Shown: positions 2,143 through 19,769 of the stretch, in pieces
How the letters are laid out: the number at the start of each line of letters is the position of its first letter
Position numbering within the stretch: position 1 is the first letter of the stretch
Assembly: GCA_964390495.1 (NCBI GenBank)
Contig: CAYMIN010000009.1
Span: 6,155-70,154 of the forward strand
Origin: an uncultured Armatimonadia bacterium
Lineage (GTDB): Bacteria > Armatimonadota > Zipacnadia > Zipacnadales > UBA11051
DNA length: 64,000 nucleotides
Reading direction: 5' to 3'
Translations under genes and position numbers: made by a program
Notes under the pieces: generated by a model
Seen by the model: the letters and a program-made list of their open reading frames with translations, nothing else
What the model was told of the DNA's origin: nothing
Databases searched by the model: none

Positions 2143-2210
2143 CGACTGCCGCGTGGCTCGGGCTTCCAGCCCGAGGCCGTGCGCAGACGCTAGCGTCGGC
2201 GTGAGAGGAT
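2143..2210 (+). repeat. conserved ~67-nt leader element upstream of E1 alpha, related to the TTCCAGCCCGA repeat family
   Basis: Near-identical to 3206-3272 (actgccgcg..gggc.t.ccagcccgaggc.gtgcgcagacg...cgtcggc.tgagagga). Hairpin ctcgggc-ttcca-gcccgag. Palindrome GACGCTAGCGTC. Confidence 0.6.
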
Positions 2211-2224
2211 AATTCAAAGGAACC

Positions 2225-3196: not shown

Positions 3197-3205
3197 GCGG
3201 GGCCC

Positions 3206-3272
3206 GAACTGCCGCGCACCCGGGCCTGCCAGCCCGAGGCAGTGCGCAGACGACATCGTCGGCATGAGAGGA
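3206..3272 (+). repeat. second copy of the conserved leader element, upstream of E1 beta
   Basis: Aligns to 2143-2210. Palindrome GACGA-CA-TCGTC carries compensatory changes relative to copy 1. Confidence 0.6.
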
Positions 3273-5618: not shown

Positions 5619-5625
5619 GGAGAAG

Positions 5626-6669
5626 ATGGCATACCCCACGGTTCTGCAGGACGTACAGACTTGCATTGACCTCGGCGTGCCCTCCCGGGTGCCGATTTTC
5701 CTCCTGGGTGAGGAGTTCGATGTCGAGCAGTATGATATTGACTATCGCACCTACATCACCAGCCCGGAGGATATGGTCAACTGCTGGGTGCAGGCCGTCG
5801 CGCGCTTCGACTATGACTGGATTCTGCTGCATCCCGACGACTACATCGAGTTCGAGCCGTTGGGCCTTGTGACGGCGGCAGATGAAAAGATCCCGCCATC
5901 GCCCATCGAGGAGTTGCCTGCAGATTACGACACTCTTAACAGCCTGGAAATACCCGATGCCCACAGCGCCGGGCGAATGCCGCATCATCTGGCCGGCCTG
6001 CAAGGCATCAAGGAGGCGATGGGCGACAGCATCTGCCTCGCGGGTCGCGTGGCGGCACCGTTCAGCTCGGTGTGCCTGCTTTACGGGGTGCAGGAAGCGC
6101 TGATGCTGATGATGACCGATCCGCAACTGTTCCGCGATACGGCCGAGTTCATGGCCGAATTGATGGTCTATTGGGCGCACGAGCAGATCAAGGCCGGCGC
6201 CGACGCCTTGTGGGTCGGGGATTGTGTGGCCTCATCGGGGTTCTTGTCGCCTGCGCACTACGAGGAGTTCGCCATGGCCGGAGCCGGCCGGGTCTGCGAT
6301 GCCATCAAAGACGCCGGCGCATGGGCGATCTACCACGGTGGCGAGCCCTCTCTGCCCCACCTCCAACTGGCGGCTCAGTTCCAGCCGAGTATGCTCAATG
6401 TGGGCGAAGACCTTGACCTGGCGGTCGCCAAACAAGCCCTAGGCGACCAAGTCTGTCTGTCCGGCAACCTCAACCCGATTCAGCTCTTCGAGGCCAAAGA
6501 CCTTGCACTGGTAGCAGAGGAGACGCTTCGAGTTATCGAGGCCGGCAAGCCGGGCGGCGGATATATCTTCAACAGCGGTGAGGGCGTGCCTCGGCAGACT
6601 GACCCCGAGATCATCGCCACGATGATGCAGGTGGCAAAGGAGCACTGCTGGTACGACCAGCAGGACTGA
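5626..6669 (+). CDS. uroporphyrinogen-decarboxylase (URO-D) family protein, MtaA/CmuA-like methylcobamide methyltransferase candidate
   Basis: URO-D fold signature spread over the length. Start placed at the ATG with an AGGGAGAAG RBS (MAYPTV...); the longer track ORF start is unlikely. Confidence 0.6.
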   Translation: MAYPTVLQDVQTCIDLGVPSRVPIFLLGEEFDVEQYDIDYRTYITSPEDMVNCWVQAVARFDYDWILLHPDDYIEFEPLGLVTAADEKIPPSPIEELPADYDTLNSLEIPDAHSAGRMPHHLAGLQGIKEAMGDSICLAGRVAAPFSSVCLLYGVQEALMLMMTDPQLFRDTAEFMAELMVYWAHEQIKAGADALWVGDCVASSGFLSPAHYEEFAMAGAGRVCDAIKDAGAWAIYHGGEPSLPHLQLAAQFQPSMLNVGEDLDLAVAKQALGDQVCLSGNLNPIQLFEAKDLALVAEETLRVIEAGKPGGGYIFNSGEGVPRQTDPEIIATMMQVAKEHCWYDQQD

Positions 6670-6674
6670 GTGAA

Positions 6675-7754
6675 ATGCAGCAGCACAAGGATACGCTAAA
6701 CTGCGCTGTCGTCGGCTATGGCCGCTATCACGACTTCGGGCGGATGCACTGCCGCTGGATCAGCGCCTGCCAGGAACTCAACCTGGTCGCCGTTTGTGAT
6801 ATGGACCCACAGGCCCGCCAACGCGCCGGCGGCGATTTTCCCGATGCGCGCCTTTATGCTTCGGTCGCTGAGATGCTCGCCGATGACGACATTGACATGG
6901 TCAGCGTCGTCACTCCCCATTTCACCCATACCGAAATCGCCACCGACTGCTTGCGGGCCGGCAAGCATGTAATCGTCGAAAAAGCGATGGCTACTAGCGT
7001 AGCCGACTGTACGGCCATGATTGAGGCCGCCGAGCGCGCCGGCCGCAAGCTGGCGGTATTTCACAATCGGCGCCATGACGGCAACTACCGCGCCATTCAG
7101 CGAGTAATCGCCGATGGCACCATCGGTGAGGTGTTCCACGTCGAGTGCTCGGAGGAAAGCTACACCGAGCCGCAGCAGTGGTGGTATTCCGAGCCCGACA
7201 AGTCCGGCGGGGCGCTGTTCTACTGGGGCCCTCATGCGGTGGACTGGGTGCTACACCTGGTGCCGTCGAGGGTGGCCCGGGTCGTCGGCGCCACCCAGAG
7301 GCGCGTCTGGTCACACGTGGACATCGCCGACGAGGTGCGCGCCTATCTCTGGTTTGAGAACGACGCGACCGCCACTATCACCTTCTCCCGCATCGCCGCC
7401 ATCCGCAAGCCTTTGTGGCGGATACTGGGCACCAAGGGTGGCATCGAGGATTCCAAGGTCGGCGTCTGCGAGGGCAACTACATCCCCCATTACCAGGAGC
7501 TGCTGGTGGGCGATGCCGGTGAAGGCCAGATCCGTGTGGTGACTGTGGATGGCGAGGAGAAAAGCGAGACTCTGGTTGACTATCTGGCCTCGGATTGGCT
7601 GACGTATTACCAGGACATGGCCGCCGCGGTCTTGCGCGATCAGCCGCTCCCGGTCACGGGAGAAGAGGGACGCATGACGGTGGCGGTCATGGCTGCGGCG
7701 CAGGAGTCGGGCGACCAAGGCGGAGTCATCATCGAGATGAGTGACTATGAGTGA
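6675..7754 (+). CDS. Gfo/Idh/MocA family NAD(P)-dependent oxidoreductase
   Basis: N-terminal Rossmann VVGYGR..., conserved EKPMA-like motif (VEKAMA), and a C-terminal alpha/beta domain. Confidence 0.8.
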   Translation: MQQHKDTLNCAVVGYGRYHDFGRMHCRWISACQELNLVAVCDMDPQARQRAGGDFPDARLYASVAEMLADDDIDMVSVVTPHFTHTEIATDCLRAGKHVIVEKAMATSVADCTAMIEAAERAGRKLAVFHNRRHDGNYRAIQRVIADGTIGEVFHVECSEESYTEPQQWWYSEPDKSGGALFYWGPHAVDWVLHLVPSRVARVVGATQRRVWSHVDIADEVRAYLWFENDATATITFSRIAAIRKPLWRILGTKGGIEDSKVGVCEGNYIPHYQELLVGDAGEGQIRVVTVDGEEKSETLVDYLASDWLTYYQDMAAAVLRDQPLPVTGEEGRMTVAVMAAAQESGDQGGVIIEMSDYE

Positions 7755-8034
7755 CAGCGCCGACGATGTTACGGTGCTGATCCCGGAGCCGCTGCGGGTC
7801 TACACCAACGGACACGCGCAGGTGAGCGTGCCGGCCGGCACCGTCGGTGAGGTGCTGTACCAGCTTGTCACCCGCTACCAGGAGATCGGGGCGCAGATAA
7901 TTGACGAAGCCGGCGTTCTGCGACATGGCGTGACAGTTGCAGTCAACGGCCAGGACATCCGCTTCGTCGGGCACCTCCAAGCTCCCGTGCGGCCCGGCGA
8001 GCAACTCCAGATCGTGGTGACGATGCTGGTCTAG
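7747..8034 (+). CDS. MoaD/CysO/ThiS-like beta-grasp protein lacking the C-terminal Gly-Gly
   Basis: The whole length aligns to long-form MoaD/CysO proteins (VTV.IP..LR.YT.G...V.V...TV.EVL..L...Y..., VAVNG.DIRF). It ends ...QIVVTMLV* instead of ...GG*. The start overlaps the upstream stop. Confidence 0.5.
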   Translation: MSDSADDVTVLIPEPLRVYTNGHAQVSVPAGTVGEVLYQLVTRYQEIGAQIIDEAGVLRHGVTVAVNGQDIRFVGHLQAPVRPGEQLQIVVTMLV

Positions 8035-8101
8035 GAAACAATTCGTGCTCCCCCGCGTCGAAATAGATAGAAATTCGACATCGAGACACGGAGACGACCG
8101 G

Positions 8102-9253
8102 ATGCGTGTAAGGCGCCTCATCATAGCGATATGGGTATTGGTATTGCTTTTCAGTGCCACCGCGGTGCTGGCCAGGCAGTGGTCTGAGCAGCGCGAGCAG
8201 GCCGTCGGTGCCGAAGTTGCCGAGCAGATCGAGAAGCAGTACAAGCTCTGGGAGGACGAGGCGAGCCAGAAGCAGGTCGAGGAAATCCTAGCCGAATTGG
8301 TGCCACACACCGACCGCCCGGATGTTGAGTATCTGGTGAAACTGCTGGACAGTGATGAGGTCAATGCCTGCAGCATACCCGGCGGCCGCATCTACGTGCA
8401 CCGAGGACTGATCGAGGAAGTCGAGTCCGTTGACGAGCTGGCCGCGGTAATGGCCCACGAGATTGCCCACAACTGCACTTATGACGCCATGGACCAGGCC
8501 GAGCGCAACCAGAAGCTATTCATCGGCGGGATCACGGCGGCGCTGGTGGCGATATTCGTCGGAGCCGACAGTAGCGAAATATCCGGCGTTCTGGCCGCCG
8601 GCTCGTATGTGCGCCAGGGGATTCTCAGCCGGTATTCCATTGACATGGAGCAGCGCGCTGACCTCAACGCCATCCGCTATCTGGCGGCTAGCAAGTACAA
8701 CCCCACCGGCCTGCTGACCTTTATGGAGCGGCTGCTGGCCCAGACCTACAAGACGGCGCGCCCCGACTACGGGATCTATGAGACCCACCCCCAGGCCACG
8801 GAGCGCTGCGCATATATCATCCAGGCCATCTATGACGCGGGGTTCGACATCAATCGGCGTGCGGTAACTAAGTGGGACCCGCCCAGCTTTGAGAGCATCG
8901 GCCCTGAAGAAACGCAGATAGACCGCCAAACAGCGCCGGCCAAGATATCACTGTGGGGCGAAGAGCTGGTCACCCTATACTATGCCGGCGAATATCCGGG
9001 CATTGACAAGCGCGCCGAGGCCATCTGCAAGCACCTCACGGAAGCGCTCGCGGCGGGCCTGGTGCTGTACCAGATAGACACTGCTGAGACTGACGGAACC
9101 TCTACGATCACGCTGCGGGGTCAGCCGATGATGAAAATCTATCCCGAGGACGTGCAATCAGAAGCAAGCTCACCCCAGGCTGTGGCCGACGGCATCGTCA
9201 GGGCGCTGGCCAGAGCCATGCACCGGGAGGAGCTGGCGCGGCGGTATCACTAG
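8102..9253 (+). CDS. membrane-anchored M48-family zinc metallopeptidase
   Basis: HEIAHN (HEXXH) and a downstream ETHPqatER motif. N-terminal hydrophobic anchor. GGAG RBS. Stop is immediately followed by the start of the lipoyl protein. Confidence 0.75.
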   Translation: MRVRRLIIAIWVLVLLFSATAVLARQWSEQREQAVGAEVAEQIEKQYKLWEDEASQKQVEEILAELVPHTDRPDVEYLVKLLDSDEVNACSIPGGRIYVHRGLIEEVESVDELAAVMAHEIAHNCTYDAMDQAERNQKLFIGGITAALVAIFVGADSSEISGVLAAGSYVRQGILSRYSIDMEQRADLNAIRYLAASKYNPTGLLTFMERLLAQTYKTARPDYGIYETHPQATERCAYIIQAIYDAGFDINRRAVTKWDPPSFESIGPEETQIDRQTAPAKISLWGEELVTLYYAGEYPGIDKRAEAICKHLTEALAAGLVLYQIDTAETDGTSTITLRGQPMMKIYPEDVQSEASSPQAVADGIVRALARAMHREELARRYH

Positions 9254-9760
9254 ATGGGCCAGCGCATCACCATCGAGAAGTGGGCCGAGAACCTCGAAGA
9301 AGTCACCCTTGCCCGCTGGCTGAAGGCCGAGGGCGACCACATCGTTGCCGGCGAAGTGCTGTGCGAGATCATCACCGATAAGGCCACCTTCGAGTACACC
9401 GCTGAGCAAGCCGGCACAATCGTCAGGATCTACGCCGCCGAGCGCAGTACCGTACCCGTCGGCTATATCATAGCCTTCCTCGCCACTGCCGGCGAGCAGC
9501 CGGACCCCGACATCGAGACCCACAATGAGAAGCTGCTTGCCGATAACCAACAGCAGGCGCAACTGGACCTCGACGATATTCTCTCAGCCGCCGGTGGAAA
9601 ACCTGCTCGACCGCGCGCAACCGCGGCCGCACGACGGCTGGCGCGCCAACTTCAGATTGACCTGCAGCAGGTCGCCGACTGGCTCAGTCCGCCCACCGAA
9701 CTGATTACCGAAGACCACGTGCAAGCATACTTGAGCGACAAAGGGAGCAGCGGTGATTGA
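9254..9760 (+). CDS. stand-alone lipoyl-attachment domain + peripheral-subunit (E3/E1) binding domain protein; E2 without a catalytic acyltransferase domain
   Basis: Lipoyl-lysine motif [11 protein letters not shown]. Ala/Pro-rich linker, then a PSBD-like segment [19 protein letters not shown]. Only 168 aa, with no CAT-like catalytic core (no DHRxxDG). Confidence 0.75.
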
Positions 9761-10499
9761 CCTAAGCGGCAAAGTGGCGCTGGTGACGGGTGGCTCGCGA
9801 GGCTTGGGCCGGGCCATCGCGGTACAGCTCGCCGAAGCCGGCGCGGAGGTTGCGGTCAATTACCTGCAGAACGCCGCAGCGGCTGAAGAGACCGGTCGCC
9901 TCATCACCGAATACGGACGCCGCTGCATTCTCTGCCAGGCGGACGTGAGCGACCGCGAGGCCGTCAAGGCGATGGTCGAGCAGGTTTCCCAGGAATTGGG
10001 CGGGCCGGATATCCTAGTCAACAACGCCGGCATCATCAGCGACCAGTTCCTCGCCTTCATGAAGCCGGAGCAGTGGGAGAGCGTCATTGCCACCTCCCTG
10101 ACCGGCGCCTTCAACTGCTGCCAGGCGGCCATGCGGCCGATGCTGAAAAAGCGCTGGGGTCGCATCGTCAATATCGCCTCTGATGCCGGCTTGATGGGCG
10201 ACTTGCGGCGCACCAACTACGCCGCCGCCAAGGGTGGTTTGATCGCCTTCACTAAGGCGCTGGCGCGTGAGGTTGTCGCCCAGGGCATTGTCGTCAATGC
10301 GGTGGCGCCGGGTGTCATCGAGACCGACCTGATCGCTGAGATGACCGACAAGCAGCGCGAGCAGATGTGCCAATTGATCCCAGCCGGTCGGTTCGGGCGG
10401 CCTGAAGAGGTCGCTCCCCTCGTGGCATTTCTGTGCTCGCAGCATGCCAATTACATCACCGGCCAGGTCCTCAGCGTTGACGGCGGCCTCCGCATGTAG
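9753..10499 (+). CDS. fabG: 3-oxoacyl-[ACP] reductase-like short-chain dehydrogenase (FabG family)
   Basis: GTG start with a [20 protein letters not shown] and NNAG motifs, YAAAK catalytic YxxxK. 8-bp overlap with the upstream gene. Confidence 0.8.
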
Positions 10500-10526
10500 C
10501 GCCTGAATCGGCTGTAATTCCCCGAC

Positions 10527-10555
10527 TTGCAAAGCCCACCTGAATCGTTTATATT
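10527..10555 (+). promoter_or_regulatory. sigma-70-like promoter candidate (TTGCAA-17 bp-TATATT) for the DUF47-pitA-fabF-KS-like-E1alpha transcript
   Basis: Hexamers read directly, with 17-nt spacing, inside the 213-bp gap upstream of the DUF47 gene. Confidence 0.45.
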
Positions 10556-10712
10556 GTGGGCGCGGATAGAAGTAATTCACCTCTACGATGGGATCGGATG
10601 CGTTACCGTAAACGTACATTCCCACGTACCGACCTGCCACTAGGCCTACCGCCACTTGCTATTGCTCCACTGTCACTTGCATCCAGCGACCTCAAGGGAA
10701 GGGACGGATATC

Positions 10713-11378
10713 ATGCCGGGGCGGAACCGTTTTCTTGACGGCCTGCAGCGGGTCATGCGTGCCTTCGCGCCGAGCGAAGAGAACTTCTTTGAGCTGTTCG
10801 AGGCTCTGGGCGACAAGGCCCTGGCGGCCGCCGAGTGCCTCGACGATGTCATGCAGAGGTTCCACCGTTTGCCGCTAGCTGTAGAGAGAATCGAGGACAT
10901 CGAGCACGAGGCCGACGAGATCGTCCACGAGGTAGTCAGGCGGCTCAACACCACCTTCGTCACCCCCGCCTTGTTCGACCGCGAGGACATCTACCGCGTT
11001 GCCGAACGCCTCGACGACATCATTGACCAAACCAAAGGCGCCATTGACCGCCTACAGCTTTTCAAGATTGAGAAGCCCACCGACAGGTGCAAAGAGCTGG
11101 TGAAAATCTTCGTGCAAGCGGCAGAGTGTCTGCAGAGCAACATGCACAACCTGGCCGGGCTCAAACCCACAGACTGCGAATACGTTGCCGAGGTCAACAC
11201 TCTGGAGAACCAGGCTGATGTGGTCAACCGGGCGGCCATGAGCGAGCTGTTCCAGTACGAAGGCGACCCCCGTCAGATCATGAAATGGCTGCAGATTTAC
11301 CAATTCATCGAAGAGGCGATTGATAGCTGCGAGGCGGCAGTCAATTTCGTCGAGGCAGTGGTGGTGAAGAATGCCTGA
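10713..11378 (+). CDS. DUF47 family protein (PhoU-like putative phosphate-transport regulator)
   Basis: Helical PhoU-like sequence. Conserved pairing with, and 8-bp overlap of, the downstream PiT transporter. Confidence 0.7.
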   Translation: MPGRNRFLDGLQRVMRAFAPSEENFFELFEALGDKALAAAECLDDVMQRFHRLPLAVERIEDIEHEADEIVHEVVRRLNTTFVTPALFDREDIYRVAERLDDIIDQTKGAIDRLQLFKIEKPTDRCKELVKIFVQAAECLQSNMHNLAGLKPTDCEYVAEVNTLENQADVVNRAAMSELFQYEGDPRQIMKWLQIYQFIEEAIDSCEAAVNFVEAVVVKNA

Positions 11379-12405
11379 CCTGCCGATCTGGGTCTGGGTG
11401 ACCGTCGCGGTGGCCCTGACCTTCGACTTCATGAACGGATTTCACGATACGGCCAACGCGATTGCCACTTCCGTGCTTACCCGGGCCTTGAGTATCCGTC
11501 AGGCGATTGTGTTCGCATCAGGCCTCAATTTCCTGGGTGCGGTGGTAAGCGTCAGGGTCGCCGCAACCATTGGCAAGGGCATCGTGGACCCGGCCGATAC
11601 CTCGCATACGGTAGTGCTGGCCGCTTTGCTCGGGGGCATTACTTGGCTGCTCATCACCTGGTATCTGGGCTTGCCGACGAGTTGCTCTCACGCTCTCGTT
11701 GGCGGAGTGATTGGAGCTGTACTGGCTGACCATACGACCCTTCAGGCCGGTGGCGGCATGCTGGGCTGGGGTGTTAACTACGGTGTGCTACAATACGCGG
11801 GGCTGACCAAGATATTCGTGTCTCTGCTACTGTCCCCGATATTCGGTGTGATCGTCGGTGTCGCGCTGATGATTACTCTGTTGCACATCTTCGGCCACTG
11901 CGCCCCGGCGGCGCTCAACCGCCATTTCAAGCGTTTCCAGATCATGTCCGCAGGCTTTATGGCCTTCAGCCACGGCTCCAACGACGCCCAGCAAGTCATG
12001 GGCATCATCACTCTTACACTGGTTGCGAGCGGAGCTCTAGGCACCTTTATAGTCCCCTTCTGGGTCAAGGTGTGCTCGGCCACTGCTATGGCTCTGGGCA
12101 CGGCCGCCGGCGGCTGGCGGATCATTAAAACAGTCGGCCGCAAGGTGATGGAACTGAAGCCGATCCACGGTTTTGCCGCCGAGACGGCTGCAGCCTCAGT
12201 CATCCAGTTCGCGACGCACTTCGGCGCTCCGGTCAGCACCACTCACGTCATCTCCACCGCCATAATGGGCGTGGGCCTATCTCACCGACTCACGGCGGTG
12301 AGATGGGGCGTAGTGGGGCAGATCGTCGGCGCTTGGATACTGACGCTCCCGATGTCTATGTTCTTCGGCGCGCTGGCTCACTGGATAATCCACAACTGGC
12401 TGTAA
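11371..12405 (+). CDS. pitA: PiT-family inorganic anion (phosphate/sulfate) transporter
   Basis: N-terminal FDFMNGFHDTANAIATSV and a repeated C-terminal GSNDAQ-type motif. Confidence 0.85.
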   Translation: MPDLPIWVWVTVAVALTFDFMNGFHDTANAIATSVLTRALSIRQAIVFASGLNFLGAVVSVRVAATIGKGIVDPADTSHTVVLAALLGGITWLLITWYLGLPTSCSHALVGGVIGAVLADHTTLQAGGGMLGWGVNYGVLQYAGLTKIFVSLLLSPIFGVIVGVALMITLLHIFGHCAPAALNRHFKRFQIMSAGFMAFSHGSNDAQQVMGIITLTLVASGALGTFIVPFWVKVCSATAMALGTAAGGWRIIKTVGRKVMELKPIHGFAAETAAASVIQFATHFGAPVSTTHVISTAIMGVGLSHRLTAVRWGVVGQIVGAWILTLPMSMFFGALAHWIIHNWL

Positions 12406-12428
12406 ACTCCGCACACAGGCGATGAGCG

Positions 12429-13655
12429 ATGCAGGCCAGGCTGTACCATGTTGCCATAACCGGGCTCGGGGTCGTCAGCCCTTTGGGCAGCGGCGCCAGT
12501 ACCCTCTGGGAGGGTTTGCTGGCCGGCTGTCGCGGTCTCACTAGCCTGACCAAATTCGACCCCACCGGCCTGCGCAACCAGAAGGCCGGCCAGGTTAATG
12601 ACTGGCAATTCGACCCCGCTGAATATGGCCTCCAGCAAGCGCCTGACGAGGCCACCCAGTTTCTGCTCGCTGCGGCGCACGAGGCGGTCGCCGATGCCGG
12701 TCTCGATGACCGTTTGCACCCAGGCGCGGAGCCTGTCGCGCAGGCAGGGGCAGTGCTGGGGACCAACTTCGGCGGCGCTGCTTCGTGGGAGAGCTACATC
12801 AACGGAGTACTGGTCGGCCGGCCCTCACCCACGGCTTTCGAGCAATTTAGCTTCCACGAGGCGCTATCCCTGCTATCCAGCAGCTTCGCCCTCAGTGGCC
12901 CCTGCAGCCAGCTCTCCATGGCCTGCGCCTCCGGAACTGCCGCTATCGGCTACGGAGCCGAGCTGATACGAACCGGCCAGGCCGAGCTGGTGCTGGTCGG
13001 CGGCTACGATGCCCTGGCTCCCAGTATTCTCAGCGGGCTAAGCCTACTCCGCACCATGACCGATGACGACCTCTATCCGTTTTCGGCCAACCGCAGTGGG
13101 ACCCTTTTCGGTGAGGGCGCGGGCGTGCTGGTGCTGGAGAACCTGCAGCGCGCCCACCAACGCCGCGTGCGCTGCTACGGCGAAGTCTTGGGGGCGTGGC
13201 AGAACAACAATGCTTACCACCTGACCGCCCCCGATGCCGGCGGTGCCGGTATGGCACGAGCCTTGCGGGGAGCGCTGCAGGTAGCGGGAATTGCCCCTGA
13301 GGACCTGGATCACATCAACGCCCACGGCACCGGGACAGAGTACCACGATGTGGCCGAGACCGAGGCGATCAAGGCCGTCCTCGGCCCGGCCGCTTACGAC
13401 ATAACCGTGGTGTCCATAAAGGGGGCTATCTCGCATCTGATGGGGGCAGCCGGGGCCGTCGAGGGTGTTGTGACAGCTCTAGCGCTCTTCCATCAGATGG
13501 TGCCGCCTACCACCAATTACGGCGATCCGGACCCGGCCTGTGACCTGGACTACGTTACCACCGGCGCGCGCCGCCAGCCTATCAAACACGCGGCCTCGCT
13601 CTCAGCCGGCATCGGCGGCGATAACGCGTGTGTGGTCCTGGGCCGGCTTATCTAG
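12429..13655 (+). CDS. fabF: beta-ketoacyl-[ACP] synthase II-like condensing enzyme (intact Cys-His-His triad)
   Basis: Active-site Cys in SMACASGTA, HGTGT present (INAHGTGTEYHD), and second His in SIKGAISHLMGAAG. Confidence 0.85.
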   Translation: MQARLYHVAITGLGVVSPLGSGASTLWEGLLAGCRGLTSLTKFDPTGLRNQKAGQVNDWQFDPAEYGLQQAPDEATQFLLAAAHEAVADAGLDDRLHPGAEPVAQAGAVLGTNFGGAASWESYINGVLVGRPSPTAFEQFSFHEALSLLSSSFALSGPCSQLSMACASGTAAIGYGAELIRTGQAELVLVGGYDALAPSILSGLSLLRTMTDDDLYPFSANRSGTLFGEGAGVLVLENLQRAHQRRVRCYGEVLGAWQNNNAYHLTAPDAGGAGMARALRGALQVAGIAPEDLDHINAHGTGTEYHDVAETEAIKAVLGPAAYDITVVSIKGAISHLMGAAGAVEGVVTALALFHQMVPPTTNYGDPDPACDLDYVTTGARRQPIKHAASLSAGIGGDNACVVLGRLI

Positions 13656-13659
13656 CAAC

Positions 13660-13766
13660 GCGTAGCTCGGCCTGCCCTGAGCTTGTCGAAGGACAGGTGA
13701 GAACGCGGTTCACCGCGTTCTCAGCTTCCAGCTCGAGGTCATTGCCGTGATTACACTGTGCCATTT
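13660..13766. repeat. long copy of a dispersed intergenic repeat element with two hairpins
   Basis: Aligns to 43974-44077 over ~105 nt, roughly 80% identical by eye. Hairpins cctgccc..ggacagg and gagaacgcgg-ttca-ccgcgttctc. Confidence 0.7.
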
Positions 13767-13794
13767 CACTCGGGGATAATCCAGACTACAGACT

Positions 13795-14799
13795 GTGAAA
13801 AACGCATCGTCTCAAAACCAGCGCATAGTCATCAGCGGAGCCGCACCGATTGCCTCCGTCGGCATCGGGCGCGAGGACTTCTTAGAGGGCCTGCGCGAAA
13901 ACCGCGCGGGCCTCGGCGCCTCGCAACGCCTGACTGATGCCGGCGGCTTCGCACAGGTGGCGGAGTGCCGCGACTTTGTGGTCGAGGACTATCTGGAGAG
14001 CAAGAAGACCTACCTCGACCGCTGCTCGGAGCTGGCGCTGGCGGCTGCGGCCCTGGCCTTCGCGGACGCCGGACTGGTCTGGTCGGAACTGGATGGCGAG
14101 CGGATCGGCCTATGCCTGGGCACCGCCTACGGCTGTCTCGAATCCATGACCAATCACACAGCGCGGGTGCAGGCCAAGGGCTTGCGTTTCGGCTCGCCGA
14201 TGATCTTCACCCACACAATGCCCAACTCACCCACGGCGCTGGTGGCCATCGAGTACGGTATCCACGGGCCGGCTGGGACCTTTTGCGCCGGCAGCATAGC
14301 GGCGGCCTGTGCGCTGGAGTTCGCCCTGCGCCGCCTCAAGAGCGGAGATGCCGACTTTGTACTGGCCGGCGGCTGTGAGGCACTGAGTGTCGCGCTGCTT
14401 GGCGGCCTGGGCGGCCCCGAGCGACTCGGGCCGGATTTCGTACCGGGTGAGGGCGCCTGCCTATTCGTCCTGGAGCGCATGCACACGGCAGCGGCCAGAG
14501 GTGCTGAGATGCTAGCCGAGATCGCCGCTGTCGGTCTGGCGGTGGCTACCGAAGCCAATCCCGACGCCGCTCTGGACGCCGCGTGCGCGCAAGCCGCTCT
14601 GACCGACAGGCCCGCGATATTCGCCCCGCCCGCCGCATACGGCCACACCTTCGGCACCTCAGTGGCTCTGGACATTTGTGCGGCACTCGGTAGTTTGAAA
14701 TCGGATGCGAGCTGCGATTGCATCGCCATAACCGGCCGCAGCGGCCTTACCGGCACTCATGCGCCGGCCGCTGCTGTCATCATCCGGAGCCTAACATGA
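13795..14799 (+). CDS. degenerate ketosynthase-like protein (KS partner/CLF-like); retains GHxxG His region but lacks the HGTGT motif
   Basis: KS N-terminal RIVISGAAPIASVGIG. Possible Cys in GPAGTFCAGS. No HGTGT, with ~25 residues missing before AAYGHTFGTS. 334 aa versus 408 aa for the FabF-like neighbour. Stop overlaps the start of the E1 alpha paralog. Confidence 0.65.
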   Translation: MKNASSQNQRIVISGAAPIASVGIGREDFLEGLRENRAGLGASQRLTDAGGFAQVAECRDFVVEDYLESKKTYLDRCSELALAAAALAFADAGLVWSELDGERIGLCLGTAYGCLESMTNHTARVQAKGLRFGSPMIFTHTMPNSPTALVAIEYGIHGPAGTFCAGSIAAACALEFALRRLKSGDADFVLAGGCEALSVALLGGLGGPERLGPDFVPGEGACLFVLERMHTAAARGAEMLAEIAAVGLAVATEANPDAALDAACAQAALTDRPAIFAPPAAYGHTFGTSVALDICAALGSLKSDASCDCIAITGRSGLTGTHAPAAAVIIRSLT

Positions 14800-15776
14800 G
14801 CTATCCAGCCAAGGAGTTAATCGCCCATTATCGGCTGATGGTCACCATCAGGGAGTTTGAGGAGGCTCTGGATGACCTCTTCAGTCAGGGACTAATCACC
14901 GGCACCGCGCACTTCTGCCGAGGCCAGGAAGCCTGTGCGGTGGGAGCCGTCGCGGCGCTGGAAGCCTCTGATTTGGTGACATCGAATCATCGCGGGCACG
15001 GCCATTTCATCGCCAAAGGCGCGGAACCGGGGCGGCTGATGGCTGAGCTGATGGGCAAGCGGGCCGGCTATTCCGGCGGGCGCGGCGGCTCCCAGCACAT
15101 GGCTGCCTTTGACCTCGGCTTCCTGGGCTCCAACGGAATAACTGCCGGTATGATACCGATCGCGACCGGGGCCGCAATGACCCAGAAGCTCAAGCAGACC
15201 GGCCGCGTCGTACTATGCTTCTTCGGCGACGGGGCTTGCGCTCAGGGCGCCTTTCACGAGGCGATCAACATGGGGGCGCTCTGGGAGCTGCCTATCGTCT
15301 ATTTCCTTGAGAACAATCTCTACGCAATGAGCACGCATGTCGGCGAGAATTTCAAGATCACGGAGCTCGTGCAGTTCGCTGACGCATACGGTCTGGCGGG
15401 GGTCAGCGTTGATGGCAATGACTACTTCGCAGTGCGAGCGACGGTCACTGAGGCTGTGAGCCTGGCCCGCTCCGGAGCCGGGCCGACGCTCATCGAGGCC
15501 CGCACCTACCGCATGTGCGGACACTCCAAGAGCGATGACTGCGAATACCGGTCTGATGAAGAAGAGCGAACCTGGGCGGCCCGGGACCCGCTGCTAGTCA
15601 TGAAAAGCCGGCTCATTGCCGACAGCATTATGGATGAAGCGACGGCGGCAGCAGCCGAGCAGCGAGCTGCCGACGATGTTGCAACGGCGATTGAGTTCGC
15701 CCGCCAAGCATCCGAACCTGACCCTGATACGCTCACCGAGGGGCTTTTCGCTGCTTCATACCTCAAGGCTCGGTAG
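14796..15776 (+). CDS. second 2-oxoacid dehydrogenase E1 alpha subunit paralog (TPP-dependent)
   Basis: HRGHGHFIAKG, GSNGITAGMIPIATG and FFGDGACAQG motifs. ATGA overlap with the KS-like gene. No cognate beta subunit downstream. Confidence 0.8.
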   Translation: MSYPAKELIAHYRLMVTIREFEEALDDLFSQGLITGTAHFCRGQEACAVGAVAALEASDLVTSNHRGHGHFIAKGAEPGRLMAELMGKRAGYSGGRGGSQHMAAFDLGFLGSNGITAGMIPIATGAAMTQKLKQTGRVVLCFFGDGACAQGAFHEAINMGALWELPIVYFLENNLYAMSTHVGENFKITELVQFADAYGLAGVSVDGNDYFAVRATVTEAVSLARSGAGPTLIEARTYRMCGHSKSDDCEYRSDEEERTWAARDPLLVMKSRLIADSIMDEATAAAAEQRAADDVATAIEFARQASEPDPDTLTEGLFAASYLKAR

Positions 15777-15935
15777 CTCTAAATACCACGCACGACCCCG
15801 CTGGGCGCAGAAGTAGCGATTCACCGAGGATTATATGAGGCGGTATGGAATGTTCTCATCGTCAACCGATAAAAATCTGCCGCAATTTTTGACCAAACAC
15901 ATCTAACTGAATCGGGTCACTATGGAGGGCTTCTG

Positions 15936-18900
15936 ATGCATTCATCTTACCAGGGTAACACTCTGCTGTTTAGGCTCGTTGCAGTAATGCTGTTTGTGCT
16001 GCTTTACCCGATATGCGTTGCCGCAGCCCCGGGCATCGGCGTCGCCTTTTTCGCCAATGCGACCCCCAACTGCCCCGCGCCTGAGGGCTTCGCGGCCAGT
16101 GACTGGGAATGGCGCCCGCTGTATGTGAGCAACTCCGGAAGCTTCGCTATGCCGCAGAACCCGAACCTCATCGGCAAACCGTTCCACTGGCAAAGTACGG
16201 TCGCGTGGAAGAACCACATGGGCGCTTCCCCGTGGGGCAACAGCGCGGATTTCGCGCACGACGGTCTGCCCTCGGGTGTGTGGCGCAGGTATTCGGAGAC
16301 ACTCTATCATCAAGTGAACGGTGCGGTCATCCCCAACCCGCAGGCGGTCCCGGGCTATGATGTACCGGATTACTATTTCCAGCACTACGGTGCAGGGGGC
16401 ACGATGTCGGCCGACCAGCTCCCCACCAACTGGTATCTCGATCCGATGAAGCGGTGGTTGGTCTGGTCGGCACTCACTGCTTCGGACGGAATTAGTAATT
16501 GGGGTGCGTATCAGGACATCAGCGGAATGTACAGCTTCGAGAAATGGGAAGGCGGGGAGGCCCGTACCCTGCAGTGCGGAGCGCGGATGGGCTCCGGTGG
16601 TGCGGGGCTCTTTGCCGGGCTGCTGGTCGCTGAGTATGCTCTGACTATCGCCTATGACCAGCAGGTGCAAGCCCTCAACCAACAGGTCGCGGCCTACCGT
16701 GCAGCCCAGATGCCCACCGAGCACGACTACTATGGCATTGATGACCCGTCGCTCGGTCAGCGGATCGTCGTCCGGCGCAAAGTCCCCAACTTTGCCATTC
16801 CTTCGGGCTGCGACTCGGGAATTGCGCCCACCCGCAACAGCCAGGGAAGTGTGGGTATTCGCACTCCGGAGCTGACGGCACCGCAGTCCGGAGAGGCCTC
16901 ACAATCCAAGGCCGTGACCTTCAACGAGAGCTTCACCACCGCGACGGTGCCGTTCCAGTTCAGCATCGAGCCGTCCTGTGAATCCGGCACTCCGTCATCG
17001 CAGTTCAGCGGCCGTTTCTCCCTCCGCCTGCACGAATATGGCGGCGGATGGCATGAGGTCCCCATCGCCGGCGTGAAGGCCGGCCAGTGGATCAGCCCCT
17101 GGAGCTACGTGCAGGACCGCGACACGGCCCCAAGCTGGAACAGCACCAATAACGCTGGTGAGGCAGTCTCGACCCAGGTCAGCACCAGTGGCACGAACTC
17201 ATTGGCCCTCGCCTGGTCGGGCGAGGTGATTGTGCGAGCGTATGACTGGGGCGTCAGTCACTTCGATAAGCTGGAGGTGAAGGCCACCGTTTCGGCCAAG
17301 GGCGCCGCGGGTGGAGAGACCACCAAGGCCCGAGGCTGGCTGTCGGTGCAACCGCTGTTCACCCGCAACATCGCCCAGGCGGGGCCGTGGGCGTCAAAGC
17401 AGCCCGGCCAGTCGGTTACCTTCTCGGCGGATACCAGCGTCATCCCAAGCAACGCCACCGCCACCACCTATACATGGACTTTCCCTGACGGCTCGACCCA
17501 GACCGGCAGCAGCGCCAGCTACACCTTCAACACTGCCGGCATCTATGATGTCAAGCTGAAGGTGGACCCGACCGTGCCCGATGTCGCACCCAATGCCTAC
17601 CTGTTCAACGATCCGGCGGGTGGACTCTCCTATGACATCTGTCGGGTTGCGGTCGGCCAGAGCTCGAATCCGGTCGACTCGTCCGACGCGGCCACTGTGC
17701 AGTTCCAGAACGTGACTGTAACGGCCACCGCCTCGCAGATCACCGCCGATTTCACCACCAACACACCCTTACAGGCGCTGTTTTCCTGGAGAATGGCACC
17801 GCCCGATTTCGTCGGCCCGATGCCTACCGGGCTTGAGGGCTACGTGACCGACCAGAATGCCACCACGAACCACCACCTCTCTGTCTCTGTGGACCAGGGA
17901 ACGCCCTACACCCTGAGCATCTCCGTGCAACCCGGCGGATCGGGCACCAAAGTGTACGCCCGCTACGACAACCAGCAACTCTGGAACATCATGACACCGA
18001 CCAGCGGCACGGGGTCCGTGGCCCTGTCATCGAGTACCGCCCCGGTCTCGTTCTCGGTCCCGACATTCGCAGGCACTCCCGGCCAGGCGCACATCACTTG
18101 GGCAAGCGATGTCGCCACCACCACGCGCGTGCAGTGGAGCGACCAGCTAAGCAGTCCCCCAAGCAGCGCCGCTGCCGCCGGCAACTACTATGATCCCACC
18201 TACACCACTGACCACGATGTGACCATCACAGGTCTGACGCCCGGCCAGACCTATACCTTCTATCTGTCGGGCGTACCGCAAGCGAGCACCGGGCACGTCT
18301 ATCTGCGACACCCCTATGCGCCGGGGTCGTCGCTTGCCCCTATCGGCTGGAGGTTCACTGTGCCGCAGTACTATGACTCCGGCAGTCGCGCGGGCGAGGC
18401 ACATCCGCTGGAGTACCTGACGGCTACATCACAGGAGGGGGGAGCTTTGCAGGTCCAGGCCGTCCTCCAGCAGCCGGGCCGGATTCGCCTGAACTACCGG
18501 CCATACGGCACTGGAGACTGGACAACCGGGACCTGGACGGACGCCTCCGGCACCCAGCAGTGGTCGCTGGCTCTGTCTCAAGGGCCGTATGAGCTGGTGG
18601 TGGATTGGGAGACACTCGGTGGTCAGATCATGTCCTCGCGACCATACGCTGTCGTGCACCAAGAGGTGGAGGAACCGCAGCCGGTGGGCTTGATCAGCGT
18701 CACTGTGGTGCGAGCCGACAATAGACAAAGACTGCAGGGCATCGGCGTATGCGTGGATACGTGGAGCAATCCGGACTTCGTAGGCGAGACCGATGCCAAT
18801 GGCAACATCATCTTCCATGACATCGCGGTCGGGGAGCACACTGTTTTCGCCTCGGAGGCGGGCTACCATTCGGCGAATCAGACGGTCACGGTGCAGGAGG

Positions 18901-19769
18901 ACCACGGGCACATCGTAGAACTGTGGCTTGGCATGAAATCCACCGTGTACGGCTCCATCAAGCTTGCCGCCGAGCATCGAAACGCGCGGCCACAACTGCC
19001 GAGAAAGCCCGTGGATGGCGGAGACGGCTTCTATTACGCAGACCAGATCAACGTCTCGGCGACCCCCGGCGGACCGACTGTGCAAAGCCATCGCGAGGAA
19101 GCCGCCGGTAGCTTCGAAGCAGGTATGAAGCAACACGGCTTCTATCTGTTCGAGGACCTTGCACCGGGCGCACACACTATCAACATTTCGCTGGCCGGGT
19201 GGACCACACAACCATATACGGTAAATATCACACAGCCCGGCCAGAAGATCCGCCATGACTTCGTCATCCAGCCTGCCCAGGAGCAGCAGGGGCAGGGCCA
19301 ACAGGTCGCAGTGCAGGCGAGCGCCTATTCGCCATACCGCTGCTCACGCATCGTCGGATGGGACTGGCTGCGGAGCAACGGAGCGGCCATCACCTTCGCC
19401 TTCTCTGGCGCGGAGTTCCGGGGCTGCGATCCAGCCGGCATTCGCCTGGAGGTCGAGGCCTTGTGTACCGACAAGGCCAGCGGCGGCGCCGGCTATAGTG
19501 CCGACCTAACCTTCCACCTCAGCGCAGGATCTCAGTCACACGTATGCAAGGTAGAGATGAAAAACCCGTTCGGGCCGCCTGACCCCAATCTGAGAACCGG
19601 CAAGGGCTACACGATAAACGGCAAGAGCGGAACGATACCGGCAGCCTTGATCAACCAGGCGATCGCCACCGGGCAGCTCACAGCGGCAATCACCTGGCCC
19701 TCGGATGTGAGTCCGCAAAACCGCCATGTCGCATTCAAACAAAGCTCCCTGACACTGAAGTCGCAATAG
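15936..19769 (+). CDS. 1277-aa secreted multidomain protein with PKD, fibronectin-III-like and carboxypeptidase-regulatory-like domains
   Basis: N-terminal signal peptide (LLFRLVAVMLFVLLYPICVAAA). PKD motif TYTWTFPDGSTQTGSSASYTFNTAGIYDVKLKV. Fn3-like ITWASDVATTTRVQW...LTPGQTYTFY. CarboxypepD_reg-like ISVTVV...GVCVDTW..ETDANGNIIFHDIAVGEHTV. GGAGGG RBS. Confidence 0.8.
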   Translation: MHSSYQGNTLLFRLVAVMLFVLLYPICVAAAPGIGVAFFANATPNCPAPEGFAASDWEWRPLYVSNSGSFAMPQNPNLIGKPFHWQSTVAWKNHMGASPWGNSADFAHDGLPSGVWRRYSETLYHQVNGAVIPNPQAVPGYDVPDYYFQHYGAGGTMSADQLPTNWYLDPMKRWLVWSALTASDGISNWGAYQDISGMYSFEKWEGGEARTLQCGARMGSGGAGLFAGLLVAEYALTIAYDQQVQALNQQVAAYRAAQMPTEHDYYGIDDPSLGQRIVVRRKVPNFAIPSGCDSGIAPTRNSQGSVGIRTPELTAPQSGEASQSKAVTFNESFTTATVPFQFSIEPSCESGTPSSQFSGRFSLRLHEYGGGWHEVPIAGVKAGQWISPWSYVQDRDTAPSWNSTNNAGEAVSTQVSTSGTNSLALAWSGEVIVRAYDWGVSHFDKLEVKATVSAKGAAGGETTKARGWLSVQPLFTRNIAQAGPWASKQPGQSVTFSADTSVIPSNATATTYTWTFPDGSTQTGSSASYTFNTAGIYDVKLKVDPTVPDVAPNAYLFNDPAGGLSYDICRVAVGQSSNPVDSSDAATVQFQNVTVTATASQITADFTTNTPLQALFSWRMAPPDFVGPMPTGLEGYVTDQNATTNHHLSVSVDQGTPYTLSISVQPGGSGTKVYARYDNQQLWNIMTPTSGTGSVALSSSTAPVSFSVPTFAGTPGQAHITWASDVATTTRVQWSDQLSSPPSSAAAAGNYYDPTYTTDHDVTITGLTPGQTYTFYLSGVPQASTGHVYLRHPYAPGSSLAPIGWRFTVPQYYDSGSRAGEAHPLEYLTATSQEGGALQVQAVLQQPGRIRLNYRPYGTGDWTTGTWTDASGTQQWSLALSQGPYELVVDWETLGGQIMSSRPYAVVHQEVEEPQPVGLISVTVVRADNRQRLQGIGVCVDTWSNPDFVGETDANGNIIFHDIAVGEHTVFASEAGYHSANQTVTVQEDHGHIVELWLGMKSTVYGSIKLAAEHRNARPQLPRKPVDGGDGFYYADQINVSATPGGPTVQSHREEAAGSFEAGMKQHGFYLFEDLAPGAHTINISLAGWTTQPYTVNITQPGQKIRHDFVIQPAQEQQGQGQQVAVQASAYSPYRCSRIVGWDWLRSNGAAITFAFSGAEFRGCDPAGIRLEVEALCTDKASGGAGYSADLTFHLSAGSQSHVCKVEMKNPFGPPDPNLRTGKGYTINGKSGTIPAALINQAIATGQLTAAITWPSDVSPQNRHVAFKQSSLTLKSQ

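Follow-up and report, generated by a model that had tools for sequence, protein, structure and literature searches.

A conserved ketosynthase pair and E1 alpha in an Armatimonadota gene cluster: a possible loading module fed by 2-oxo acids

Genes at the locus

The window (the whole 64-kb stretch of DNA that was analyzed) encodes a FabF-like ketosynthase (KS), a shorter chain-length-factor-like (CLF-like) protein (KS′) and a ThDP-dependent E1 alpha subunit (E1 alpha-2). All three genes are genuine, intact and under purifying selection. A free-standing lipoyl carrier and a FabG-like reductase lie upstream, and a second E1 alpha (E1 alpha-1) is found farther away with the only E1 beta in the window (Table 1).

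Table 1. Positions of the genes and features discussed, numbered from the first nucleotide of the window
Feature	Position	Strand	Description	Basis
E1 alpha-1	2225–3196	+	Second E1 alpha	Pfam
E1 beta	3264–4259	+	Only E1 beta in the window	Pfam
Carrier	9254–9760	+	Free-standing lipoyl domain plus peripheral-subunit-binding domain (PSBD), 168 aa, no E2 catalytic core	Pfam Biotin_lipoyl
SDR	9753–10499	+	FabG-like SDR ketoreductase, 248 aa, start overlapping the carrier stop	Pfam adh_short/KR
PhoU–Pit	10656–12405	+	PhoU_div and PHO4/Pit phosphate-transporter pair	Pfam
KS	12429–13655	+	FabF-like ketosynthase of predicted active type, 408 aa	Pfam PF00109 and PF02801
Hairpin	13698–13723	+	Perfect 11-bp hairpin without a T tail, in the KS/KS′ spacer	Sequence; RNA fold z-score −2.4
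KS′	13795–14799	+	Putative CLF-like partner of KS, 334 aa, GTG start	Pfam, N-terminal KS domain only
E1 alpha-2	14796–15776	+	ThDP-dependent 2-oxoacid dehydrogenase E1 alpha, 326 aa	Pfam E1_dh, E-value 8e-79

The initial annotation described KS, KS′ and E1 alpha-2 as translationally coupled. This is correct for the last two genes, where the stop of KS′ overlaps the start of E1 alpha-2 in an ATGA at 14796, as had been noted. This 4-nt overlap persists in 25 of 34 loci, with protein identities of 45–65%, which argues against E1 alpha-2 being an unrelated, separately transcribed gene. Coupling does not extend to KS and KS′, which stand 139 nt apart (13656–13794) with a stable hairpin between them. 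The hairpin has no match in Rfam; its stem flanks are conserved in locus L010, with a longer loop, and not in L011. The GTG start of KS′ is conserved in both of these loci.

A predicted active ketosynthase and its degenerate probable partner

Both ketoacyl-synthase domains are present in KS, and Cys166, His299, Lys331 and His336 occur without exception in the 60 family members compared. The Cys-His-His triad reported for this protein at the outset is therefore intact, and KS is predicted to be of the catalytically active type. Its dN/dS values are 0.11–0.18. Scored with the NCBIfam fabF equivalog model TIGR03150 (cut-off 493.75), KS reaches 325.9 bits, which places it outside the housekeeping FabF group, and KS′ reaches 128.6 bits.

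KS′ is 74 residues shorter than KS. It retains the His block (YGHTFG) and has lost the HGTGT motif, as first described, although the gap around that motif spans ~31 residues rather than ~25 and is accompanied by further deletions. The candidate Cys did not survive alignment: Cys164 is offset from the catalytic column by three residues on the upstream side, and only 19 of 29 family members have it. The column itself holds Ser167 in KS′ and S, D, A, V, G or R across the family, never Cys or Gln, and no more than 15 of the 29 retain His284. Since it has no catalytic Cys, KS′ would not serve as a second acyl acceptor and appears to be a dead partner, that is, a CLF-like structural subunit with no predicted catalytic role. 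Canonical CLFs self-prime by virtue of a Gln that KS′ does not have. This Gln occupies the catalytic column in the Streptomyces CLF P0078 and is absent from the KS′ family, which thus stands apart from the canonical aromatic-PKS CLFs.

An early concern was that KS′ might be a frameshifted or otherwise broken FabF. This is ruled out by its membership in a conserved family (84 database homologues and 65 genome loci, ranging from 240 to 400 aa), by purifying selection (dN/dS ~0.2) and by a confident AlphaFold (AF2) model with a thiolase fold (pLDDT 92.7). The top Foldseek match of the model is 6KXD, the ishigamide KS/CLF structure. KS and KS′ probably form a heterodimer, for which natural fusions into a single ORF in six loci offer indirect support. 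In most loci the two genes lie side by side or overlap.

The E1 subunits

Among solved structures, E1 alpha-2 is closest to human PDH E1 alpha, which scores 204 bits compared with 144 for BCKDH. The ThDP motif (GDG...ENN) and His243 of the GHS loop are invariant in 39 homologues, which suggests a catalytically competent enzyme, and the dN/dS is 0.11. E1 alpha-2 is the orthologue of the E1 alpha found in the related cassettes, with 52–65% identity to these proteins versus 40% to E1 alpha-1.

E1 alpha-2 was initially said to be without a beta partner. No beta gene adjoins it, but the window does have one (3264–4259), which goes with E1 alpha-1. This beta is 46–49% identical to the cassette betas, while those share 55–81% among themselves, and it is 75% identical to the beta of locus L015, which likewise adjoins a class-III aminotransferase. 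The pair at 2225–4259 is a different E1, and its role as a beta donor for E1 alpha-2 is possible but unproven. A cassette-type E1 beta follows E1 alpha in 24 loci. In relatives the cluster also encodes a dedicated ACP and a holo-ACP synthase along with this E1 beta, which suggests that the system is ACP-dependent and that its E1 normally consists of alpha and beta subunits.

Lipoyl carrier and reductase

The carrier aligns with the lipoyl and PSBD portions of E2 chains and ends after the PSBD. Its lipoyl Lys (T-D/E-K) and PSBD motif are conserved in 28 loci, which points to a functional protein, and the family includes more than 200 stand-alone homologues of 160–180 aa. The E2 motif [DN]HRxxDG is absent from every ORF in ~1.1 Mb of neighborhoods. 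Of the 27 loci with a carrier, 24 have the SDR next to it, with the holo-ACP synthase in between in the Abditibacteria type; overlaps of the two genes are common, and the pairing persists even where KS is elsewhere.

As the initial annotation stated, the full 64 kb holds no ACP gene; a cluster ACP is present in 12 related loci. The window also contains no E3 (dihydrolipoamide dehydrogenase). A Pyr_redox_2 protein, an E3 candidate for reoxidizing the carrier, lies downstream of the cluster in only two loci, which counts against the lipoyl-based loading proposed below. A housekeeping E3 encoded elsewhere may take this role.

These genes could instead be co-located housekeeping functions. KS and SDR would be the FabF and FabG of the organism, or a FabH-independent initiation module, and E1 an ordinary acetyl-CoA-making pyruvate dehydrogenase, co-regulated because it feeds fatty-acid synthesis and with no direct hand-over. 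The SDR score of 297.7 at the FabG cut-off (TIGR01830, 297.75) and the holo-ACP synthase within the cluster fit such a role and count against a specialized loading module. The gene set is also widespread in the phylum, and its sub-operons are dispersed amid unrelated genes, as is often the case with core genes. This explanation is nonetheless unlikely. KS (326 bits) falls short of the FabF cut-off, the cluster ACP is far from AcpP (19.8 bits against the E. coli protein) with the cispentacin ACP as its best family, and ordinary fatty-acid synthesis has no dead partner subunit. In addition, fabH, fabD, fabZ and acpP are missing from all neighborhoods, and a carrier that has no E2 core could not make acetyl-CoA alone.

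A conserved cluster across Armatimonadota

The cluster is found in ~65 species-level genomes from Armatimonadota, Abditibacteria and a few bins from other phyla. Its recurrent order is lipoyl + PSBD carrier, holo-ACP synthase, FabG-like reductase, esterase, KS, KS′, E1 alpha, E1 beta, GT2, ACP, two alpha/beta hydrolases (ABHa and ABHb), GT4s and MurJ, with the holo-ACP synthase and the esterase as variable members. The adjacency of a KS-like gene and E1 alpha, suggested earlier as something to look for in other genomes, recurs in dozens of species, and the repetition of the KS–KS′–E1 alpha order is beyond chance. These three genes make up the conserved core of a previously undescribed cluster; no published description of the combination of KS/KS′, E1 and lipoyl carrier was found in the literature. 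Synteny strongly supports a functional link among the carrier, E1 and the KS pair.

The version in the window is fragmented. The carrier and reductase (9254–10499) are separated from KS by the PhoU–Pit pair, which occurs in L001, L011, L012 and L015 and is missing from L014 and every other lineage. The pair was inserted in this lineage, splitting the ancestral carrier–SDR–KS operon, and does not belong to the system. No cassette-type E1 beta, ACP, hydrolase or glycosyltransferase lies within the 64-kb window. It could be argued that the cassette in this lineage is a decaying remnant, a truncated KS fragment with a functionless orphan E1 alpha, given these absences, the inserted transporter pair and the 74 residues by which KS′ falls short of KS. 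However, dN/dS is 0.09–0.3 for all five genes in comparisons with three relatives, KS and E1 alpha have kept every catalytic residue, and the same reduced layout is common to at least six species (L001, L010–L012, L014 and L015). Decay therefore appears largely refuted and is highly improbable.

A proposed loading module

The reading we favor, tentatively and at somewhat less than even confidence, is that KS, KS′ and E1 alpha-2 make up the core of a type II condensing system, built of discrete subunits and with a 2-oxoacid-dehydrogenase-type loading module, in which an acyl chain is begun from a 2-oxo acid by way of the free-standing lipoyl carrier. This proposal is drawn from genome comparison. 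The ThDP-dependent E1, pyruvate-type by similarity and alpha + beta in relatives, would decarboxylate the 2-oxo acid and reductively acylate the lipoyl-lysine of the carrier, which may dock through its PSBD with no E2 acyltransferase core involved. The S-acyl-dihydrolipoyl arm would pass the starter to the KS/KS′ heterodimer, either straight onto Cys166 of KS or through the cluster ACP first. KS would condense the starter with malonyl-ACP, and the FabG-like reductase would produce a 3-hydroxyacyl-ACP. In relatives with the full cluster, the acyl group would finish on an envelope glycan or glycolipid, a destination suggested by the two alpha/beta hydrolases, the GT2 and GT4 proteins and the MurJ-type flippase. 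Acyl transfer from the lipoyl arm to KS or ACP is putative, as are the substrate and the product.

Several lines of evidence argue for this loading module: the conserved gene order, the KS′/E1 alpha and carrier/SDR overlaps, the KS–KS′ fusions, the invariant KS triad beside a dead KS′, a competent E1 alpha and functional carrier, purifying selection, the absent E2 core and the Qnc/Scl precedent discussed below. There is also no alternative starter source, as the conserved gene set has no KSIII, acyltransferase or AMP-ligase. Other observations count against it. The window lineage has no cassette-type E1 beta, ACP, hydrolases or glycosyltransferases; Abditibacteria retain carrier–ACPS (the holo-ACP synthase)–SDR–KS–KS′ with no E1 within 10 kb; and carrier–SDR and KS–KS′–E1 are at separate sites in some genomes.

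A bolder form of the proposal, which we consider unlikely, has the S-acyl-dihydrolipoyl-lysine arm prime KS directly. The KS/KS′ heterodimer would then replace the E2 core of a 2-oxoacid dehydrogenase, the acyl group would enter chain extension with no acyl-CoA stage, and the dead KS′, co-translated with E1 alpha, could offer a docking surface for E1 or the lipoyl carrier. On the genomic evidence, direct lipoyl-to-KS transfer and transfer via ACP, as in QncN/L/M, may be regarded as equally open routes. A further possibility, itself rather doubtful, is that an alpha/beta hydrolase, like the hydrolase-fold half of acetoin-dehydrogenase AcoC, moves the acyl group from the lipoyl arm to ACP or CoA, and that KS is then primed conventionally from acyl-ACP. 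The ACP gene directly adjoins ABHa and ABHb in 10–12 loci, the acyl group is handed to ACP in QncL-type systems, and the AcoC model NF011457 matches the carrier through the model's N-terminal part (positions 4–108) and the ABHb of L038 through its C-terminal part (positions 130–327, 22.9 bits). The ABHb match is weak, however, and the nearest counterparts of ABHa and ABHb are the exosortase-A-associated hydrolases 2 and 1, respectively. The systems in which such hydrolases (TIGR03100/TIGR03101) occur are not known to have a lipoyl protein. Many lineages, the window included, also keep carrier–SDR–KS–KS′–E1 alpha with no ABH or ACP nearby.

The glycosyltransferases and terminal flippase of the full cluster raise another explanation. 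E1 alpha/beta might attach a C2 unit from pyruvate to a keto-sugar of a glycan built by the neighboring glycosyltransferases, with the KS pair making an independent acyl decoration. There is precedent in the avilamycin and paulomycin pathways, where AviB1/AviB2 and Pau11/Pau12 are PDH-like E1 alpha/beta pairs without an E2 that transfer such a C2 unit (PMC4425429). This is quite unlikely here, as it leaves unexplained both the conserved lipoylatable carrier with its E1/E3-binding domain and the near-universal KS′/E1 alpha overlap of 4 nt, and the KS–KS′–E1 alpha–E1 beta four-gene unit is kept at loci where no glycosyltransferase is nearby.

Comparison with known systems

The proposed loading module resembles several characterized systems in part. 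Like the KS–CLF heterodimers of type II PKSs, in particular the highly reducing subgroup (ishigamide Iga11/Iga12, PDB 6KXD), it pairs an active Cys-His-His KS with a homologous partner that has no catalytic Cys, the two genes lie side by side or overlap, and there is a discrete KR, with an ACP in related loci. It differs in that KS′ does not carry Gln in place of the Cys and is missing the entire first-His loop and a C-terminal segment, the Armatimonadota cluster has no dehydratase, and the KS pair is translated together with a 2-oxoacid dehydrogenase E1 and has a lipoyl carrier associated with it.

In cispentacin biosynthesis, the KS AmcF works with AmcG, a truncated, motif-less cyclization factor of 157 aa, in one round of elongation on a dedicated ACP, with a starter derived from a 2-oxo acid that an adenylating enzyme loads intact (PMC10698177). 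The cluster shares a KS with a truncated motif-less partner, a dedicated ACP in related loci and, as proposed here, a starter from a 2-oxo acid that is elongated once. The NCBIfam AmcF, AmcG and AmcB models are among the matches for KS (232.5 bits, cut-off 325), KS′ (17.4, cut-off 80) and the ACP (64.2, cut-off 80), all under their cut-offs, with AmcB the best match of the ACP. In contrast to AmcG, KS′ proteins have 240–400 aa, and oxidative decarboxylation by E1 would take the place of adenylating loading.

A precedent for the loading chemistry is provided by QncN/QncL/QncM and SclQ1-4, in which a ThDP enzyme passes its product through a lipoyl/E2-like protein to an ACP, giving glycolicacyl-ACP (PMC6335953). 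Both types have a ThDP-dependent alpha/beta enzyme, a lipoyl domain and, in related loci of the cluster, a dedicated ACP, and the Qnc and Scl proteins supply a carrier-bound acyl unit to an assembly line. In those systems an acyltransferase catalytic domain is joined to the lipoyl domain and an NRPS receives the acyl unit (domain description in PMC6335953), whereas here the lipoyl protein has no catalytic domain and a KS pair is the neighbor. Similarly, the intact ThDP motif in E1 alpha/beta, the D/E-K lipoylation motif and the PSBD are shared with PDH, BCKDH and AcoABC, which differ in that here the neighborhoods have no core-forming E2 catalytic domain, the cluster has no E3 and the carrier is a stand-alone protein of 160–180 aa.

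Finally, the ACP–ABHa–ABHb trio of the relatives, set inside a polysaccharide locus, recalls the exosortase-A-associated cassette (TIGR03100, TIGR03101). The best matches are hydr1_PEP for ABHb and hydr2_PEP for ABHa, with scores below the cut-offs. Where that cassette has an acyl-CoA ligase and a PLP decarboxylase, the relatives have E1, the lipoyl carrier, KS, KS′ and KR. The trio is not in the window.

Significance

Known type II polyketide and fatty-acid systems obtain their starters as acyl-CoA via KSIII, through adenylating enzymes or by CLF-catalyzed malonyl decarboxylation. If the favored reading is true, selection by an E1 and a free lipoyl carrier without an E2 core would be a new means of starter-unit choice, and the lipoyl swinging arm would have a new role as the starter-unit carrier for a condensing enzyme. 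An E1/lipoyl module that makes primers from cheap 2-oxo acids could also become an engineering tool. Even if the link is one of co-regulation only, the stand-alone lipoyl + PSBD proteins, a family of more than 200, and the shrinking CLF-like family still lack annotation and deserve names. Armatimonadota and Abditibacteria, in which the cluster is widespread, have an envelope chemistry that is almost unstudied; the cluster would be a sign that these bacteria make an acylated envelope glycan or glycolipid.

The Ketosynthase Pair

In the FabF-like ketosynthase (KS), the two ketoacyl-synthase domains are both present, as are the motifs MAC166ASG, NAH299GTGT, and K331...H336. Cys166, His299, Lys331, and His336 do not vary across 60 sequences, which bears out the intact Cys-His-His triad read in the initial annotation. 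The protein scores 326 bits against the FabF model (cut-off 493.75), and its best PDB match is 9S5H/9S5I, codes for which a literature search gave unrelated papers only.

The 334-amino-acid ketosynthase-like partner (KS') is a different case, with just an N-terminal KS domain detected by Pfam. When KS' is aligned with KS and homologues, about 31 residues are missing around HGTGT, a loss already recognized in outline, along with about 27 near the C terminus and two smaller gaps, while YGH284TFG is retained. The column of the catalytic Cys is occupied by Ser167, where the helix from residue 166 begins in the AlphaFold model, and across the KS' family it holds Ser, Asp, Ala, Val, Gly, or Arg, but never Cys or Gln. 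Cys164, previously put forward as the candidate nucleophile, is rejected because it lies three residues off register and is poorly conserved (19 of 29 members; His284 is found in 15 of 29).

A database search returned 84 homologues of KS', about 65 of them KS' proteins of 250–400 amino acids from metagenomes and Armatimonadota MAGs. The longer members (354–401 amino acids) have the first-His region in mutated form (GASGS, AANGS), and their second His is replaced by Glu or Asp, while in shorter members the first-His loop is deleted. With this loop mutated in some members and lost in others, the family shows a dead subunit undergoing stepwise reduction. The possibility that KS' is a frameshifted FabF fragment, named at the outset as a ground for refutation, is rejected given a conserved family, a dN/dS of about 0.2 (0.18–0.21 against three relatives), and a confident predicted fold (pLDDT 92.7, pTM 0.92). 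Superposed on structures of FabF and KS/CLF, the model gives TM scores of 0.80–0.85, the top match being the ishigamide KS/CLF 6KXD.

Gene Coupling and the KS–KS' Spacer

The KS' stop overlaps the start of E1 alpha-2, the second E1 alpha of the window, as ATGA, just as first described. The suggested search for this adjacency in other genomes found the 4-nt overlap in 25 of 34 loci having both genes (21 of 30 after near-duplicate removal). In most loci KS and KS' overlap or abut, and in six, from Armatimonadia and two Kiritimatiellia bins, they form a single open reading frame of 640–780 amino acids (see the table). Translational coupling of KS to KS' does not hold in the window itself, where 139 nt separate the genes without overlap. 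With the triad and the ATGA overlap borne out and Cys164 and this coupling not, the original observation is partly confirmed.

The spacer contains a perfect 11-bp palindromic hairpin at 13698-13723 (UGAGAACGCGG / CCGCGUUCUCA) with no T tail. The related locus L010 has this stem with a longer loop, and L011 lacks it. The hairpin has no Rfam match; over 8000–16200, Rfam returned nothing besides a weak ALIL pseudoknot match within the Pit gene (11892–11972; 21 bits versus a gathering score of 50, E 0.036), which is probably due to chance. No promoter or terminator stands out inside KS–KS'–E1 alpha: consensus-scan sites are no commoner than in shuffled sequence, and none falls on the + strand within 12429–15776.

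Features of the window and of related loci
Feature	Location	Coordinates	Strand
MTTB-like fragment	window	19-330	
Split transketolase	window	345-1190 and 1187-2113	+
E1 alpha-1	window	2225-3196	+
E1 beta	window	3264-4259	+
Class-III aminotransferase	window	4260-5618	+
URO-D-like protein	window	5551-6669	+
GFO/IDH/MocA oxidoreductase	window	6675-7754	+
M48 peptidase	window	8045-9253	+
Lipoyl-domain carrier, 168 aa	window	9254-9760	+
FabG-like SDR	window	9753-10499	+
PhoU_div + PHO4/Pit phosphate-transporter pair	window	10656-12405	+
KS	window	12429-13655	+
KS'	window	13795-14799	+
E1 alpha-2	window	14796-15776	+
1277-aa protein with PKD, CarboxypepD_reg-like, and purple-acid-phosphatase N-terminal domains	window	15936-19769	+
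Aldo/keto reductases	window	42881-43954, 44182-45207, 45322-46356	
KS–KS' fusion	L017	5628-7862	
KS–KS' fusion	L018	3-1928	
KS–KS' fusion	L022	4883-7189	
KS–KS' fusion	L025	1663-3963	
KS–KS' fusion	L052	5783-8125	
KS–KS' fusion	L058	8663-11002	
E3-like oxidoreductase	L067	16301-17731	

A Conserved Cluster and Its Layouts

With each species represented by one genome, a scan gave 65 loci, on which proteins of the window and related loci were mapped by phmmer to obtain gene order. They occur in Armatimonadota (Armatimonadia, Candidatus Zipacnadia, and Fimbriimonadaceae) and in Abditibacteriaceae, including the cultured Abditibacterium utsteinense, with a few further loci in bins labelled WS1, Kiritimatiellia, Verrucomicrobiota, or Planctomycetales. 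The window's closest relatives (78% identity) are MAGs of Candidatus Zipacnadia, a class of Armatimonadota.

The recurrent order is lipoyl carrier–(holo-ACP synthase, ACPS)–SDR–(esterase)–KS–KS'–E1 alpha–E1 beta, followed by GT2–ACP–hydrolase a–hydrolase b–two or three GT4. The esterase is S9/PHB-depolymerase-like and about 650 amino acids long, and in L033 and L036 the GT4 genes are followed by a MurJ-family flippase. The hydrolases a and b are best matched by exosortase-A-associated hydrolases 2 and 1, respectively, below cut-off.

Reduced layouts are also found. One is a four-gene KS–KS'–E1 alpha–E1 beta unit. Another, in Abditibacteria and Fimbriimonadaceae, is carrier–ACPS–SDR–esterase–KS–KS' with no E1 within 10 kb. 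In Abditibacteria (L062–L074, e.g., L067 5929-11841 and L063 1521-10573), KS' has shrunk to about 240–255 amino acids, and KS and KS' are separated by inserted unrelated genes, for example RmuC in L063. An E3-like class-I pyridine-nucleotide disulfide oxidoreductase lies downstream in L067 and L064; E3 was rejected as a cluster member because it is present in these two loci only.

The window has the layout M48–carrier–SDR–(PhoU–Pit)–KS–KS'–E1 alpha, common to L001, L010–L012, L014, and L015. The PhoU–Pit pair separates SDR from KS in L001, L011, L012, and L015 and is missing from L014 and every other lineage, indicating a lineage-specific insertion into an older carrier–SDR–KS operon. In some genomes carrier and SDR are still paired with KS located elsewhere. 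The M48 gene ends at the base before the carrier start, an adjacency shared only with L001, L011, L012, L014, and L015.

Directly 3' of E1 alpha-2 the window has the PKD-domain gene, where relatives have E1 beta, GT2, and ACP. A second ThDP set lies upstream (19–7754), running from the transketolase halves, E1 alpha-1, and E1 beta through the aminotransferase onward; in L015 its E1 beta–aminotransferase segment likewise precedes the cluster, as does the aminotransferase alone in L011. Three aldo/keto reductase genes stand in a row farther along the window. In L076, from a Planctomycetota-labelled bin, the stand-alone lipoyl and peripheral-subunit-binding domain (PSBD) gene sits between KdsA-like DAHP_synth_1 and LptD_N/OstA-like genes (9109-12060), a neighborhood that may point to a connection with outer-membrane or LPS biogenesis.

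E1, the Lipoyl Carrier, and Alternative Roles

E1 alpha-2 is orthologous to the alpha of the cassette (52–65% identity, versus 40–47% for E1 alpha-1). Its ThDP motif and GHS-loop His are invariant, and human PDH E1 alpha is its closest solved relative. The claim that it has no beta partner stands insofar as the window has no cassette-type beta: the upstream E1 beta is 46–49% identical to cassette betas, which share 55–81% among themselves, and was rejected as the missing one. Even so, this beta could act as a heterologous partner. Since it is not of the cassette type, the lineage's own cassette beta has apparently been lost or relocated. Decay of the cassette in this lineage is contradicted by dN/dS; the value for E1 alpha-2, 0.11, reveals strong purifying selection despite the absent cassette beta.

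The carrier aligns to the lipoyl domain and PSBD of E2 chains and then stops. Across 28 loci the lysine of T-D/E-K and the PSBD motif are both conserved, and there are >200 stand-alone homologues of 160–180 amino acids. The idea that E2 is split, with its catalytic domain encoded separately close by, was rejected, the search for the E2 catalytic motif having given nothing real in any neighborhood ORF. Among the other large ORFs of the window, Pfam scans revealed no ACP, E2, E3, or further fab gene, and phmmer with E. coli AcpP and cluster ACP queries against all stop-to-stop ORFs of the 64 kb agrees with the initial report of no ACP.

The cluster might serve ordinary fatty-acid and PDH metabolism, as its ACPS gene, the FabG-like score of SDR, and its wide distribution would allow. 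This reading is weakened by a KS below the FabF cut-off, a dead partner subunit, a carrier without an E2 core, and a cluster ACP only distantly related to AcpP (19.8 bits), whose top hit is the cispentacin ACP model. A KS pair making octanoyl-ACP for carrier lipoylation was rejected, as no unannotated conserved family is left in the synteny set as a LipA/LipB candidate. By analogy, E1 might instead take part in sugar branching like the E1-type enzymes AviB1/AviB2 and Pau11/Pau12 (PMC4425429), which fits the glycosyltransferase context of the cluster but leaves the lipoyl carrier and the KS'/E1 alpha overlap unexplained.

Precedents exist for the parts. In QncN/L/M and SclQ1-4, a ThDP enzyme loads an ACP through a lipoyl domain that bears its own acyltransferase domain (PMC6335953), whereas the carrier here has no E2 core. 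In AmcF–AmcG, the partner of the KS is inert and reduced in size (PMC10698177). Scores against the FabF, AmcF, and AmcG models all fall below cut-off, and full-text literature searches turned up no account of a KS pair together with E1 and a lipoyl carrier. Every part is of a known kind, and the combination has the defining features of no one system, lacking both an E2 core and a CLF Gln.

A Proposed Route for Starter Loading

Canonical CLFs have a Gln that allows primer making through malonyl-ACP decarboxylation. KS' has no such Gln, the conserved set has no KSIII, acyltransferase, or adenylating enzyme, and E1 with the lipoyl carrier is the sole acyl-generating machinery in the cluster. With no other source of a starter there, loading through E1 and the carrier is proposed; as judged from gene content, these most likely supply the starter acyl group of KS/KS'.

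E1 would decarboxylate a 2-oxo acid and acylate the carrier, from which the starter would pass to KS/KS'. Transfer straight from the lipoyl group onto Cys166, as originally speculated, is favored by the persistence of the carrier–SDR–KS–KS'–E1 alpha core without ACP or hydrolases, and is nonetheless considered rather unlikely. Alternatively, the acyl group could be handed over to ACP by a hydrolase resembling the alpha/beta-hydrolase half of AcoC. Under the proposed E1–carrier route, KS would then extend the starter using malonyl-ACP and SDR would reduce the product. In organisms with full clusters, the hydrolases and glycosyltransferases may attach the acyl group to a glycan or glycolipid of the envelope, which MurJ would flip.
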